A stretch of 64,000 nt of DNA from Kofleriaceae bacterium (GTDB lineage Bacteria; Myxococcota_A; Polyangia; Haliangiales; Haliangiaceae), in contig JASNYD010000006.1 in assembly GCA_048500355.1 (NCBI GenBank), positions 352,211 to 416,210 of the forward strand. Reading direction: 5' to 3'. How positions within the stretch are numbered: position 1 is the stretch's first letter; each line of letters starts with the position of its first letter. Shown in pieces: positions 46,640-51,593 of this stretch. A program made the translations under genes and the position numbers. The notes under the pieces are model-generated. The model searched no databases and had not been told where the DNA came from. It saw nothing but the letters and a program-made list of their open reading frames with translations.

Positions 46640-48918
46640 TCAGCGCTTGCGCCGCAGCTTGACGTCGACCTTGTGGCCGTCGCGATCGGGATAGACGCGC
46701 TGGGTGGCGGTCAGGCCGCGGCGGGCGAGGACGAGCGACGTGGTCTCGAAGCCGGGGAGCGCGATCGTCGCCGGCGTCTTGCCGACCACGACGTCGCCGA
46801 TGGTCACCGTCGCGCCCGACGGCCGCGACGTCACCTTCACCTCGAAGACCGGCCGCTCGAGCCGCACCTCGAGCGCGGCCGCCCCCGCCGCGACCTGGCG
46901 GGTGACCGGCTGGTAGCGGTCGCGCCGGAACGTGACCTCGTAGGGCGTGCACGGGCCGTCGTAGGTGAACGGGGTCTCGCCGAGGATCTGGCCGTCGCGC
47001 ACGACCTGCACCGCCTCGGGGCTCGACGACAGCGCCACCGCGCAGGTGCCGGAGGCGGGCGGGGGTGAGGCGCCGGGCGCGATCGGGGGCGGCTCCGGCG
47101 GCGACTCGACCGCTGGCGGCGGGGTCGTGGCCGCGGCCGGCTCCACCGCGCCGCCCGGCGCGCCGGCGCGCGGCGATCCGCCGGGCGCGGCGGGGGCCGA
47201 CGCGCCGCTCGCCGCCGGCGCGGCGCTGGCCGCGGGCGGACGGCCCGCGGCGCCGCCATCACCGCCGCCGCCGCGCGCGGCGATGACGACCATGACCGCC
47301 ACGCCGATCACGATGAGGCCGGAGGTGACCGCGATGACCGGCCAGCGCCGGCGCGCCGCCGGGCCGCCGAGCTGGATCATCTCGGTCATGTCGTCGTCGC
47401 GATCGACGAGCTCGGGCGCCGACCACGCCGGAGCCGCCGATGACGGGTAGGGCCTCGGGTAGTACGGCGCGCCAGCCGCGACCGGCGCCATCGCGGCTGC
47501 GGGCGGCGGCGCCATCGCCGCCATGGGCGGCGGCGCCATCGCCGCCACGGGCGGCGGCGCCATCGACGCCACGGGCGGCGGCGCCATCGCGGCCACGGGC
47601 GGCGGCGCCATCGCCGCCACGGGCGGCGGCGCCATCGCCGCCACGGGCGGCGGCGCCATCGCCGCCATGGGCGGCGGCGCCATCGCCGCCACGGGCGGCG
47701 GCGCCATCGACCATCCCGGCGACGACGCCGGCGGCGGCGGCGACGGCGGGACGACGATCGGCACGGCCCGCGGCGGGAGCGTGGTCGGCAGCGGCTCCGT
47801 CGCGTCCGCGGAGCCGACCTCCGCGACCGCCTCGGGCAGCGCGACGACCACGTCGGTCGGGAGGTCGTCGCCGACGACGGTGACGGTGGGGACGATCGGC
47901 GCGGCCTCCACCGGACCCGACGGGACCGCGCTCATGCCGGCGGGCGCCGCGGTCGGCACCGTCGGGCCGAGGTCGAGCGCGCCCGGCGCGCCGTGCGAGG
48001 TCGACGCCGCCGCGGCGATCGCGTGCATCACCGCGCCGCGCGTCGGCTGGGTCGGACCGGTCTCGTGCTCGACGCCGTGGCGCGGCACCGGCACGCTGTC
48101 GGTGGGCACCCCCGGCGGCGTCCCCGCCGCCACGACCGCCGACGAGGACGCGCCGCGCGTCGGCGTCGACCGGGCCGGCGTCGAGCTCGCGGGCGCCGCC
48201 CCGGTCCCACCTGGACGCGGTCGCGCGGGCGCCGGCATCGCGGCCGGCGCGCCCGCCACCGACGGTGGGGCCGGACCCACGACCGGGATGCCCATGAGGG
48301 TGCGCTGCTGCTCGCGGCGCGCGCGGCCGTCCGCCGTCATCGGGGCCGCGCCGGCGCCCACCGCGGCGCCAGGGACCGGAACGGGGAGCGGCGCCTGCCG
48401 GATCGTCGGCGGCGCCGGCTCGCGCGCGGAGCCGGGCATGCGCACGGTGGCGAGGTCGGGCCGCGCCGCGCCGGCGGGCGCCATCGCCTCGACCGCGCAG
48501 GTCGCCGCCGCGGCGTCGACCGCGCCGCCCTGGGCGACGCCGATCGCGGCCCCCAGCGGCACGAGGTGGCGCGGCACCGCCGGCGGCACCGCCGCCGCGG
48601 CGTGCTCCACCATGTGAGCGAGCAGGCCCTTGCCGCGGGCGTCGAGGCGGAGGTAGCGCACGTCGATCGTCGCGCCGGCCGGCGCGCCGGCCGCCCCCGC
48701 CGTCGCGCCCCCCACGCTCACCTCGGCCTCGCCATCGAGCACCGCCACCCGCGACGCGAGGGTCACCACGACCCGCCCGCGCCCGCTCGCCACGGGCGCA
48801 CCCGTGACCGGGATCGCGGTCAGGCCCTCGGGCCCGGCCAGGGTGCGGAACACCCGGATCAGGTCCTCGACCGTCGCGCACCGGCTGACCAGGCGCCACG
48901 CGGTTCCGTTCGCCACGA
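46640..48918 (-). CDS. Pro/Ala-rich membrane protein with C-terminal PEGA domains and internal (MAPPPVAA)n repeats
   Basis: It has a TM helix (WPVIAVTSGLIVIGVAVMVVIAA) and two C-terminal PEGA-like modules. The start is uncertain (a GTG near 48918 is proposed). The longest ORF reaches 49201 and overlaps the divergent gene. Confidence 0.55.
47483..47710. repeat. In-frame 24-bp tandem repeat (~9.5 copies) encoding MAPPPVAA
   Basis: The unit is GGCGGCGGCGCCATCGCCGCCACG on the top strand and it lies inside the coding sequence. Confidence 0.8.
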
Positions 48919-49088
48919 GGATCGAGTGTAGGCAATTCCGGCGGGTGTAACCAGGCAGAAGCGCAAACCTCGGGTCACGCCCCGTGGCCGGCGGTTGACG
49001 CTCGCGCCGCCGGCGGCCCGGAGGCGTGGGGAAGGTCCACAACCGGTCCGGCCTTCGCCTGGCACCCACCTTGCGAGGTCCCCCGACC

Positions 49089-49868
49089 ATGCGGACCCGA
49101 ACCATCGTCGCCTCGCTCACCCTGTGTGCCCTCCCCCTCCTGGCCGGCGCCCGCGGCGACGGGTGCGCGGCGAGCTCGCGCTCGCCCGCCCCCGACGTCA
49201 CCGGCTGGTGGGACGTGACCTACGACGACGCCCTGAGCGTCGAGATCATCGTGGGCGGCTCGGTGTACACCGCCGAGACCGGCGCCCAGGGCGGCGCGAT
49301 CACGATCACCCACCAGGGGCGCCCGCTCACGTTCGACCTCGCCTGCGCGCGGCCCGAGGTCGTGTGCCCGAGCGAGGCCTGGCCGCGCGCGATCTTCGCC
49401 GAGCAGCGCGACGCCGGCTTCGAGCACCGCATGTACGTCACGCTGCCGGTGCAGACCTGCGCCGGCGCCCGGCGCGCCCCGGCGCCCGGCACCTGCGGGG
49501 CCGGCACCGCCAACCCCGAGTGCGACGACGTGTGCGACGGCGAGCTCGTCTCCCGCGACGAGGAGCGCTTCGGCGTGATCGGCGAGAGCGGACGGACGTT
49601 CCGCCTCTACCTCGGCGCCGGCGTCGCCACCAACGGCATCAACTGCGCGCTGCTCGGCTGGTCGGTCGCCGACGCCGAGCTCGACACCGTCGGCAGCGCC
49701 GCCGGCGGCGACTGGGAGGCGGTGGCGATGGACGCCGGCATGGTCACCGTCGGCTACTCCGGCGGCTGCCTGTGGGCCGGCGATCCGGACCTGGACGGCG
49801 AGCTCGAGGCCCTGATCCTGGGCGCCACCGTCAAGCTCACGACCGGCTTCACCGCCGATCGGCGCTAG
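49089..49868 (+). CDS. Hypothetical secreted Cys-rich protein
   Basis: It has a signal peptide and at least 10 Cys residues. Confidence 0.5.
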   Translation: MRTRTIVASLTLCALPLLAGARGDGCAASSRSPAPDVTGWWDVTYDDALSVEIIVGGSVYTAETGAQGGAITITHQGRPLTFDLACARPEVVCPSEAWPRAIFAEQRDAGFEHRMYVTLPVQTCAGARRAPAPGTCGAGTANPECDDVCDGELVSRDEERFGVIGESGRTFRLYLGAGVATNGINCALLGWSVADAELDTVGSAAGGDWEAVAMDAGMVTVGYSGGCLWAGDPDLDGELEALILGATVKLTTGFTADRR

Positions 49869-49982
49869 CGGAACGACCGGCTCGCGACGCGCGATCTCCC
49901 GCGAAAAAAGCCGCCAGGAGCCCTTTTCTCGCAGATCGCGCGATGCCATGAATTCGCATCCGACAACCCGGAGGAGATTTTC

Positions 49983-50210
49983 ATGGCCAAGGCTAAGTCG
50001 AAGGGTAAGGCCGCCAAGAGCGGCGGTGGCGAGATGCTGCTCATCGCGTCGAAGGTCCGCGCTGCCGTCAAGGACGCCGACTGCAACTTCGCGGGTGACG
50101 CGCTCGACGGGCTCAACGCGTACGTCCACTGGCTCGTCAGCCAGGCGACCGCGCGCGCCACGGCGAACGGTCGCAAGACCGTCCGCGCGCACGACTTCCT
50201 CGTCCCCTGA
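49983..50210 (+). CDS. Histone-fold DNA-binding protein (bacterial-histone/DUF1931-like) with Lys-rich N-terminal tail
   Basis: It is 75 aa with a strong GGAGGA ribosome-binding site. The core (LLIASKVRAAVKD...GDALDGLNAYVHWLVSQATARATANGRKTVRAHDF) matches the recalled pattern of small bacterial histone-fold proteins. The N-terminus (MAKAKSKGKAAKSGGG) is Lys-rich. Confidence 0.55.
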   Translation: MAKAKSKGKAAKSGGGEMLLIASKVRAAVKDADCNFAGDALDGLNAYVHWLVSQATARATANGRKTVRAHDFLVP

Positions 50211-50239
50211 GACCTGATCGAAGTCGACCGCGAGCGCGG

Positions 50240-50266
50240 GCGCCGGTGACGGCGCCCGTCGCGCTT
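50240..50266 (+). terminator. GC-rich hairpin downstream of the histone-fold gene
   Basis: The stem is GCGGGCGCC / GGCGCCCG with loop ggtgac. There is no clear U-tract. Confidence 0.3.
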
Positions 50267-50309
50267 TCGGCGCGGCGCCGCCACCCGCCGGCCGTGCCAT
50301 AGTCGAGGG

Positions 50310-51104
50310 ATGAGCCGCACCCGCTGGTGGCTGATCGGCGTGATCGCGCTCGCGACCGTGGCGAGCGGCGTCCTGGTCGGCCTGCTGGTCGTCAAGCGCA
50401 TCGAGTCCGGGCAGTGGCAGATGATCTCGAGCGCGGATCTGGTGGAGGTGAAGGCCCGCCTCACCGGCCCGGTGCCGCCGCGGCCCAGCCGCGTCATCTA
50501 CCTGGCGCGCGAGCCGCTGACGTTCACGCCGGGCGTGGACGACGCCGCGCGCGGCCAGTCGAGCGTGGTCGCGGCCAAGGCCGGCAAGCCGATCAAGGTG
50601 CCGGGGTGGAAGGGGACCGCCAAGGGCTGGGGCCAGGTGGTCACCTGCGTCGAGAAGCTGTTCGCGCCGTTCGACGTCGTGGTGACCGACCAGCGCCCCA
50701 CCGGCGACGACTTCGTCCTGGTCGCGGTCGGCGGGCGGCCCGGCGACGTCGGCGAGACCAACAAGCGCGTGGGCGGCCTGGCGCCGTTCTCGGGGGGCGT
50801 GATCCCGCGCGCGGTCGTGTTCGTGTTCTCGACGCAGCTCGGCAACCAGGTGACCCCGGTGTGCGAGACCATCGGCATGGAGGTCGCGCACGCCTACGGC
50901 CTCGATCACGGCTACCTGTGCAAGGACGTGATGACCTACCTCAAGCCGTGCGGGGCCAAGTCGTTCGTCGACCAGGACGTGCCGTGCGGCGAGACCAAGA
51001 AGCGGCCGTGCATGGGCGGCGCCCCCACCCAGAACTCGTACCGGCGGCTGCTCGAGATCCTGGGCCCGGCGCGGCCGGTCCCGGTGGCGGGCCCCGGGCG
51101 CTGA
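50310..51104 (+). CDS. Membrane-anchored hypothetical protein with degenerate metzincin-like motif
   Basis: It has an N-terminal TM helix. [12 protein letters not shown] resembles HExxHxxGxxH with the first His replaced by Met. Confidence 0.45.
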
Positions 51105-51152: not shown

Positions 51153-51593
51153 ATCCGGGCTCGGGTTCGGGCTCGGGGCTGCATGACCCGCTCACCCTGA
51201 GCGGAGCCCCGAAGGGGCGGAGTCGAAGGGGCTCGGGTTCGGATTCGGATTCGGGTTCGGATTCGGGTTCGGGTTCGGGTTCGGGTTCGGATTCGGGTTC
51301 GGGTTCGGATTCGGGTTCGGATTCGGGTTCGGGTTCGGGGCTGCATGACCCGCTCACCCTGAGCGGAGCCCCGAAGGGGCGGAGTCGAAGGGGCTCGGGG
51401 CTGCATGACCCGCTCACCCTGAGCGGAGCCCCGAAGGGGCGGAGTCGAAGGGGCTCGGGGCTGCATGACCCGCTCACCCTGAGCGGAGCCCCGAAGGGGC
51501 GGAGTCGAAGGGGCTCGGGGCTGCATGACCCGCTCACCCTGAGCGGAGCCCCGAAGGGGCGGAGTCGAAGGGGCTCGGATCCGGAGCCGGGCT
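51153..51593. repeat. Composite intergenic repeat: five copies of a 60-bp double-hairpin unit plus hexanucleotide (NNTCGG)n arrays
   Basis: The 60-bp unit GGCTGCATGACCCGCTCACCCTGAGCGGAGCCCCGAAGGGGCGGAGTCGAAGGGGCTCGG lies at 51177-51236 and in four perfect tandem copies at 51339-51578. The copies are separated and flanked by 6-bp repeats that are the reverse complement of the 26634 family. Confidence 0.85.

Follow-up and report, generated by a model that had tools for sequence, protein, structure and literature searches.

A candidate face-to-face histone with a lysine-rich N-terminal tail in a Kofleriaceae bacterium

The histone gene and its product

A 64,000-nt stretch of a Kofleriaceae bacterium contig (the window; GC content, 0.759, ~76%) carries on its plus strand a short gene, at 49983-50210, whose 75-amino-acid (aa) product almost certainly has a histone fold of the α3-truncated family. 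The protein is identical to MBE7451937.1 and MCL4225339.1, which are listed as a "hypothetical protein" of a Kofleriaceae bacterium metagenome-assembled genome (MAG). Here, it is described as a probable face-to-face (FtF) histone, the Kofleriaceae counterpart of the Leptospira histone HLp. The parts of the gene are as follows.

49970-49976, plus strand: Shine-Dalgarno sequence GGAGGAG, 6 nt 5' of the ATG
49983-50210, plus strand: histone coding sequence, 75 aa, with the stop codon TGA at 50208-50210
49983-50030, plus strand: tail at the N-terminus (residues 1-16, MAKAKSKGKAAKSGGG); 5 Lys, net charge of +5, predicted to be disordered
50031-50207, plus strand: histone fold, residues 17-75, comprising α1, loop L1, α2, loop L2, a short α3, F72, and the extension LVP

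Homologues of the protein formed 1077 clusters at 90% identity, and relatives were found in at least 239 species-representative genomes; thus, the open reading frame (ORF) is real, far beyond chance. At 50% identity, 1186 clusters matched at a cutoff of E ≤ 1e-3, and 169 did so at E ≤ 1e-10. The start is unambiguous, since the ATG at 49983 is the earliest start codon downstream of the preceding in-frame stop. The GC content at third codon positions was 0.91 in the histone frame and 0.97 to 0.99 in the flanking plus-strand ORFs (49026-49868 and 50310-51104), and the ORFs that overlap it, in other frames or on the minus strand, are artefacts of the kind usual in DNA with 76% GC. When all six frames of the window were searched for the motif R[KTR]T....D, this was the only histone gene, and no second one was found.

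An earlier reading of this DNA, made from the sequence and referred to below as the original prediction, had proposed a bacterial histone-fold product translated from a strong GGAGGA ribosome-binding site. The site is present as the GGAGGAG listed above, and AGGAG-type sites occupy the equivalent place in nearly all related loci. The same prediction placed the gene in a local AT-rich island. GC content does drop to 0.56 to 0.59 at 49900-50049, but this is one of seven 100-nt patches in the window with a GC content of ≤0.60, and it is simply the intergenic region (GC, 0.61) together with Lys, Ala, and Gly codons.

For the fold, a single-chain AlphaFold2 model was built on 32 family members, and sequence and structure searches of the PDB were in agreement with it. 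The model had a predicted local distance difference test score (pLDDT) of 81 overall and of 85 to 96 in the core, with helices at residues 22-31 (α1) and 40-61 (α2) and a 3-residue α3 at 69-71. In the L2/α3 region, R64-K65-T66-V-R-A-H-D71 corresponds to the RxTxxxxD motif, or RD clamp. With phmmer, the best PDB match by sequence was HLp (9qt0; E = 5.4e-9), followed by the Bdellovibrio histone HBb (8cmp/8fvx; ~8e-5) and the archaeal histone HTkC (9f2c; 3e-4). A structural search of the PDB with Foldseek also ranked HLp first, at an rmsd (root mean square deviation) of 0.8 to 0.9 Å, a template modeling (TM) score of 0.94 to 0.95 (normalised to HLp), and 42 to 43% identity. HBb (rmsd, 1.1 to 1.4 Å; 32% identity) and HTkC (rmsd, 1.1 Å; 39 to 40% identity) were also matched, while nucleosomal H3 reached only an rmsd of ~3 Å with E > 0.02. 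Every confident Foldseek match was a histone, so that the proposed fold was borne out by the model and by both kinds of search.

Family signatures and the N-terminal tail

Schwab et al. (2024) split the α3-truncated histones into FtF tetramers, bacterial dimers, and others (PMC11390915). The α3-truncated group as a whole has an α3 of 3 to 4 residues and a shortened α2, in keeping with the fold modelled here. The FtF family is defined by its predicted tetramer, whose dimer-dimer interface contains an Arg and, four residues later, an Asn (R48/N52), which the bacterial dimers lack (PMC11390915); the Asn in turn stands two residues ahead of the RxT arginine. Hu et al. (2025) described HLp as a stable tetramer in which R49, S52, and N53 lie against F63, T61, and R55, with an R55-D62 clamp, and which wraps ~60 bp of DNA (PMC12701072).

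From α1 to F72, the protein aligned with HLp without gaps, residue i corresponding to HLp residue i-9. The HLp tetramer residues R49, N53, R55, and F63 are R58, N62, R64, and F72 here, and the clamp R55-D62 is R64-D71. Of the HLp residues that contact DNA, A13, S14, K15, K17, K21, G29, and T57 correspond to A22, S23, K24, R26, K30, G38, and T66, and the exposed α1 lysine of FtF histones (K16 in the hidden Markov model numbering, K15 in HLp) is K24. HLp T56 is replaced by K65, which yields the RKT motif of other histones. In a 32-sequence family alignment (A1), which was used to assess residue conservation, K24, K30, R58, N62, R64, K65, T66, D71, and F72 were invariant, as was the clamp motif, and S23 and G38 were nearly so. 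By every sequence-level criterion, the protein would thus be classed as an FtF histone and as neither an HBb-type dimer nor a DUF1931 pseudodimer. The FtF class is preferred to the bacterial dimers because R58 and N62, which those dimers lack, are invariant and because the protein is closer to HLp than to HBb.

Other classes were considered and rejected. The bacterial dimer class does not fit, given the presence and invariance of R58 and N62 and the weaker match to HBb. A DUF1931 pseudodimer, which has two histone folds per chain and has lost the DNA-binding residues, is incompatible with one fold in 75 aa; no Pfam match to DUF1931 appeared even at E ≤ 10, and "DUF1931" in entry 9qt0 is the depositor's name only. 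For a nucleosomal histone, whether of the archaeal HMf type or a eukaryotic core histone, an α3 of 3 residues compares with ~10 in that class, which also has a four-helix-bundle interface, and the match to H3 was poor.

The comparison of loci drew on the best 80 of the 239 relatives, which belonged overwhelmingly to Kofleriaceae, Haliangiales, or "Myxococcales" MAGs; counts for tails and downstream hairpins were taken from 75 species-level loci. The tail had a median length of 16 aa (range, 8 to 59) and a median net charge of +5 (maximum, +15), and it was composed of 30% K, 26% A, and 18% G. A MAKAK or VAKAK start was found in 62/75 loci, and MAKAK was near-invariant in A1. The tail is coding, since the loci show synonymous codon changes in it (GCC/GCT/GCG/GCA and AAG/AAA), and there is no alternative conserved start, since the residue at position 18 varies among the relatives (M, V, I, S, or T). 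In the AlphaFold2 model, pLDDT was below 50 at residues 1-3 and 5-12.

The original prediction had likened this segment to a eukaryotic histone tail. The lysine tail is real, conserved, and predicted to be disordered, whereas its likeness to eukaryotic tails is compositional only. Eukaryotic and Asgard-archaeal tails likewise precede α1, are disordered, and contain much Lys, Gly, and Ala, but they belong to nucleosomal histones with a long α3, with no sequence sign of homology beyond composition. Among bacterial FtF histones, tails are common and mostly positively charged, and no tail sequence is shared across bacteria (PMC11390915). The clade-level conservation of MAKAK within Kofleriaceae/Haliangiales is a small addition to that published catalogue.

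Much longer, histone-H1-like tails occurred in six relatives (L026, L027, L036, L046, L049, and L066; example, MAKAKAKKKAPAKKKKPAVKKAAVKE), and three of these loci (L026, L036, and L049) had distinct, AT-richer upstream regions (GC, 0.43 to 0.47). The long tails of L026, L049, and L066 resemble in composition the C-terminal domain of Anaeromyxobacter CarD, which, as cited in PMC2919716, is histone-H1-like and rich in Lys, Ala, and Pro and thus offers a Myxococcota precedent for a basic, low-complexity DNA-binding segment. The CarD segment sits on an RNA-polymerase-binding regulator and not on a histone fold, and the comparison is an analogy only.

Further observations were made on the relatives. 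A Cys-Asn pair in L1 (C34-N35, 50082-50087) was invariant in A1; HLp has Phe-Met at this place, and a few distant loci have F or L for C. Close relatives were also found in bins of other phyla, namely L061, L072, and L073 (labelled Acidobacteriota) and L037 (Pseudobdellovibrionaceae), which could be binning errors or horizontal transfer. The N-terminus of L072 and L073 is acidic and non-basic (MEESNMSGE). In addition, two tandem α3 histone folds were present in proteins of 118 to 132 aa (P0121-P0125, P0128, P0129, P0131, P0132, and others), which scored best when the library clustered at 50% identity was searched with the family profile. In these doublets, NGRKTVR.HD closes each copy and the basic tail is absent. 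The doublets are fused proteins closely related to the singlet family and distinct from DUF1931.

Proposed architecture and its alternatives

As an α3-truncated FtF histone, the protein would act in the following way. Monomers with the modelled fold would form head-to-tail histone-fold dimers, as the conserved core residues suggest. Two dimers would then join into a ring-like tetramer through the C-terminus of α2, L2, and α3 (R58, N62, R64, and F72). Following HLp, the tetramer would bind ~60 bp of DNA round its perimeter without sequence specificity, with contacts from the N-terminus of α1 (A22-S23-K24), from R26 and K30, and from the L1/L2 bridge (G38, K65, and T66). The disordered 16-residue tail would exit beside the α1 DNA contact and contribute +5 per chain, or ~+20 per tetramer, and this charge may provide extra phosphate contacts or charge neutralisation. 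That the protein is an FtF tetramer that wraps DNA is probable from its signature residues.

The protein is a credible nucleoid protein because it is homologous to HLp and to the Leptospira interrogans histone (PMC12701072, PMC10627809); the latter, also an FtF histone, is essential and occurs at high abundance (PMC10627809, PMC12701072). By analogy, an abundant nucleoid protein seems, on balance, the likelier role here. The gene looks like a monocistronic unit with its own conserved promoter-like region, a strong Shine-Dalgarno sequence, and a terminator-like hairpin, as would suit such a protein.

HLp of Leptospira perolatii (PDB 9QT0/9QT1/9QT2; PMC12701072) was the best match overall (40 to 43% identity; rmsd, 0.9 Å). 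The two have in common the truncated α3, the RD clamp, the R/N/R/F tetramer residues, most DNA contacts, and a single small gene. In contrast to the 16-residue, +5 tail described here, the N-terminus of HLp has ~9 residues and is not basic (MAQNAEKDT). HLp ends at F63, whereas the Kofleriaceae protein continues with LVP, and the HLp gene adjoins smc/map, whereas there are no such neighbours here. With the FtF family as catalogued, in which Myxococcota is already among the listed phyla and tails are common and mostly positive, the protein shares RxTxxxxD, R48/N52, and the α1 lysine (PMC11390915); the difference lies in a MAKAK tail start that is nearly invariant within Kofleriaceae/Haliangiales. 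HTkC of Thermococcus kodakarensis (PDB 9F2C) agrees in fold and in the predicted type of tetramer, but it is archaeal and tailless.

Several points weigh against this interpretation. Because only a single-chain prediction was made, the tetramer is read from the signature residues. Some HLp positions differ: S52, T61, and L47 are A61, H70, and T56 here, and the DNA contact T27 is F36, although most family members have T. Across the family, 1 to 5 residues extend beyond F72 (LVP here), and these may alter the tetramer contact. Nothing reached the threshold in Pfam (CENP-X, E = 0.055; HincII, 0.22) or in NCBIfam (archaea_histone, 0.061). Scans of 49500-50600 with sigma-70 and terminator consensus sequences returned no sites, and high expression is predicted only. 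Finally, the MAK start could equally reflect selection for translation initiation and not a tail function, since bacterial genes with high expression typically carry Ala and Lys codons after the ATG.

The main alternative, which we consider rather unlikely, is that the histone stays a dimer like HBb (Bd0055) of Bdellovibrio bacteriovorus (8CMP, 8FVX, and 9EZZ; PMC11317129, PMC10627809) and bends or coats DNA with no closed wrapping tetramer. HBb is an abundant nucleoid protein from a related predatory lineage and a strong structural match (rmsd, 1.1 to 1.4 Å), with the truncated α3 fold and the RKT motif common to both proteins. Bacterial dimer histones have been reported in "Myxococcota_A" (PMC11390915), and the C-terminal extension past F72 could disturb the FtF interface. 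However, HBb is a strict dimer that is 32% identical and lacks the R/N tetramer residues, whereas the FtF-defining R58 and N62, which bacterial dimers lack, are invariant in the present family, and the sequence is far closer to HLp (E = 5e-9 versus 8e-5 for HBb). It is very improbable that the fold serves protein-protein interaction or specific regulation of the CENP-X or NF-Y type and not general DNA packaging: CENP-X (E = 0.055) is the only weak Pfam match and the packaging role is argued from homology, but the HLp DNA-contact residues are conserved, the tail is strongly basic, and a single-gene unit with wide vertical conservation in Kofleriaceae/Haliangiales fits an architectural protein.

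The protein described here adds a new and uncharacterised member to a family already catalogued in 2024, which has one solved representative. Current understanding is unchanged, and the 2024 catalogue is extended. To our knowledge, bacterial histones have been studied experimentally in two lineages only, as HBb in Bdellovibrio and HLp in Leptospira. An FtF histone that is tailed and well conserved would offer a third lineage for experiments, in which it can be asked whether basic tails change FtF DNA wrapping and whether bacterial tails are modified. The conserved flanks (the promoter-like block, Shine-Dalgarno sequence, and hairpin) provide handles for expression studies.

Flanking DNA and neighbouring genes

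The histone gene is flanked by the following features.

49888-49942, no strand assigned: inverted repeat, imperfect, whose outer arms are CGCGCGATCT / AGATCGCGCG, bracketing the A-tract and the -35-like block
49904-49909, plus strand: A6 tract, putatively UP-element-like
49921-49931, plus strand: CCCTTTTCTCG, the CTTYC block, a putative -35 region
49942-49964, plus strand: conserved block GATGCCATGAATTCGCATCCGAC, a putative -10 region and leader start
50236-50267, plus strand: terminator-like hairpin GCGGGCGCCG-GTGA-CGGCGCCCGT, then CGCGCTTT; stem-loop at 50236-50259

Upstream, the conserved features are sequence blocks (an A-tract, CTTYC, and a -10-like block), seen in a larger clade and in the clade of the window. 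The larger clade was aligned on the 10-mer GGTGTAAAAG, which occurred exactly once per locus in 30/80 loci and nowhere else in those loci, always on the coding strand and 35 to 55 nt before the histone ATG. Its layout is GAAAAAC-N12-CTTcC-N17-TAAAAG, then ..CCTCA.., with the CTTYC block 17 nt 5' of the TAAAAG hexamer and an A- or T-tract conserved ~12 to 15 nt 5' of the CTTYC block. From the sequence, this spacing suggests a sigma-70-like geometry with the A-tract at the UP element position. The window and its nearest relatives have GAAAAAA, CCTTTYCTCG-N2-GATC, and G(G/A)TGCCATGAATTCGCATCCGAC at the corresponding places, and GATGCCATGAATTCGCATCCGAC, which is conserved in this clade and unique in the window, occupies the place of GGTGTAAAAG.

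A co-varying stem-loop in the 5' untranslated region, around the TGTAAAAG / CATGAAT block, was also considered, with GAGGTG..CACCTC as its arms (GATGC..GCATC in the window). It was rejected by a partner-swap test, in which own arms paired at -7.59 kcal/mol and those of other loci at -7.33 kcal/mol (z = -0.88; P = 0.19). The upstream block thus appears to be conserved as sequence and not as structure, since own arms pair no better than swapped ones. An Rfam search over 49700-50400 gave only a chance match (E = 0.9).

A more far-reaching proposal has three parts, which we regard as improbable when taken together: that GGTGTAAAAG, or GCCATGAAT in the clade of the window, is part of a dedicated high-output or autoregulated promoter; that the FtF histone is the main chromatin protein of Kofleriaceae/Haliangiales; and that its MAKAK tail is regulated in the eukaryotic sense, with N-terminal processing or lysine acetylation adjusting its charge and so controlling DNA wrapping. 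A regulated tail is improbable by itself as well. If true, the proposal would describe a bacterial histone-tail system, and some models of eukaryogenesis name this phylum as a partner.

Three GATC-centred, GC-rich palindromes lie near the putative promoter region, GCCGATCGGC at 49853-49862 and the two sequences CGCGCGATCT (49888-49897) and AGATCGCGCG (49933-49942), and all members of the window's clade have a GATC in the putative -35/-10 spacer. Any link of these palindromes to DNA methylation is pure speculation.

The last two palindromes are also the arms of the inverted repeat; they match perfectly over 10 nt and are separated by 35 nt. The original prediction described a ~20-bp imperfect inverted repeat bracketing the likely -35/-10 region, as an inverted-repeat promoter. 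The repeat is present and extends to a ~19-bp imperfect hairpin, whereas a promoter role was not supported: repeats of this kind occur at chance frequency, and of the seven relatives checked, L001 alone has these arms, and it is a near-identical contig. For these two reasons, the repeat was rejected as a significant feature. Inverted repeats whose 10-nt arms match perfectly and stand ≤60 nt apart number 43 in the window, compared with 34 ± 5 in first-order Markov simulations; the repeat is unremarkable in itself, since its frequency is about what chance predicts.

It is doubtful, although less so than the proposals judged improbable above, that the inverted repeat is a functional operator, or the terminator hairpin of the upstream ORF 49026-49868, and not a by-product of GC-rich DNA surrounding conserved promoter-like blocks. 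The RNA fold of the repeat reached -29.8 kcal/mol (z = -2.76), and the repeat begins 20 nt past the upstream ORF's stop codon, which means that it could be the terminator of that gene. Different inverted repeats were found at a similar position in L002 and L014, and the alignment fold contained a helix of 9 bp, 3 pairs of which had changed on each side. However, no inverted repeat was present in four of the seven relatives checked (L003, L004, L005, and L009), no T-tract follows the hairpin, and the alignment fold was weak (-7.08 kcal/mol in total), with a slightly unfavourable covariation term (+0.77). Moreover, the inner A/T complementarity of the repeat coincides with the sequence-conserved A-tract and CTTYC blocks.

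Downstream, the GC hairpin of the original prediction was found at 50236-50259, where a 10-bp stem begins 25 nt past the stop and TTT follows after a 5-nt gap. In the 80 nt past the stop, 54/75 loci had a hairpin whose stem was 7 bp or longer, versus 41% of random 80-nt segments. Most of these hairpins had the form GGGCGCC-loop-GGCGCCC, 15 to 55 nt past the stop, and a T-rich tail followed in 30 loci. Although the consensus terminator scan missed it, the hairpin in the window is best read as a putative terminator.

The histone gene looks monocistronic. The flanking ORFs had no Pfam matches; a PEGA-domain protein and a Ser/Thr kinase lie farther out. The upstream 280-aa ORF was beside the histone gene in 12/80 loci, in both orientations, and its orientation flips between relatives while the histone gene keeps its own flanks. 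That this neighbour is so seldom present and can point either way fits a histone gene that stands as an autonomous single-gene unit with no functional link. A functional link to the neighbours was therefore rejected, given the ORFs without Pfam matches and the rarity of the 280-aa ORF.

The 280-aa neighbour is convergent with the histone gene in L013, L014, L029, L030, L055, and L070. In L006 (1440-1460), the histone ATG lies ~19 nt past the stop of the upstream 280-aa gene without a separate promoter region.

Repeats were observed on both sides of the locus. A GGGTTC hexamer array of 18.5 copies (51229-51339) lies between the ORFs ending at 51104 and 51594, and a 60-nt tandem repeat (unit, GGGCTCGGGGCTGCATGACCCGCTCACCCTGAGCGGAGCCCCGAAGGGGCGGAGTCGAAG; 4.1 copies, 99% identical; 51331-51578) continues it. 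The whole stretch from 51229 to 51578 is open in several frames on both strands. The minus-strand ORF 46640-49201 specifies a proline-rich protein of 853 aa that ends in a C-terminal PEGA domain; within it, a 24-nt repeat (9.5 copies, 94% matches; 47483-47709) is translated as (MAPPPVAA)n.

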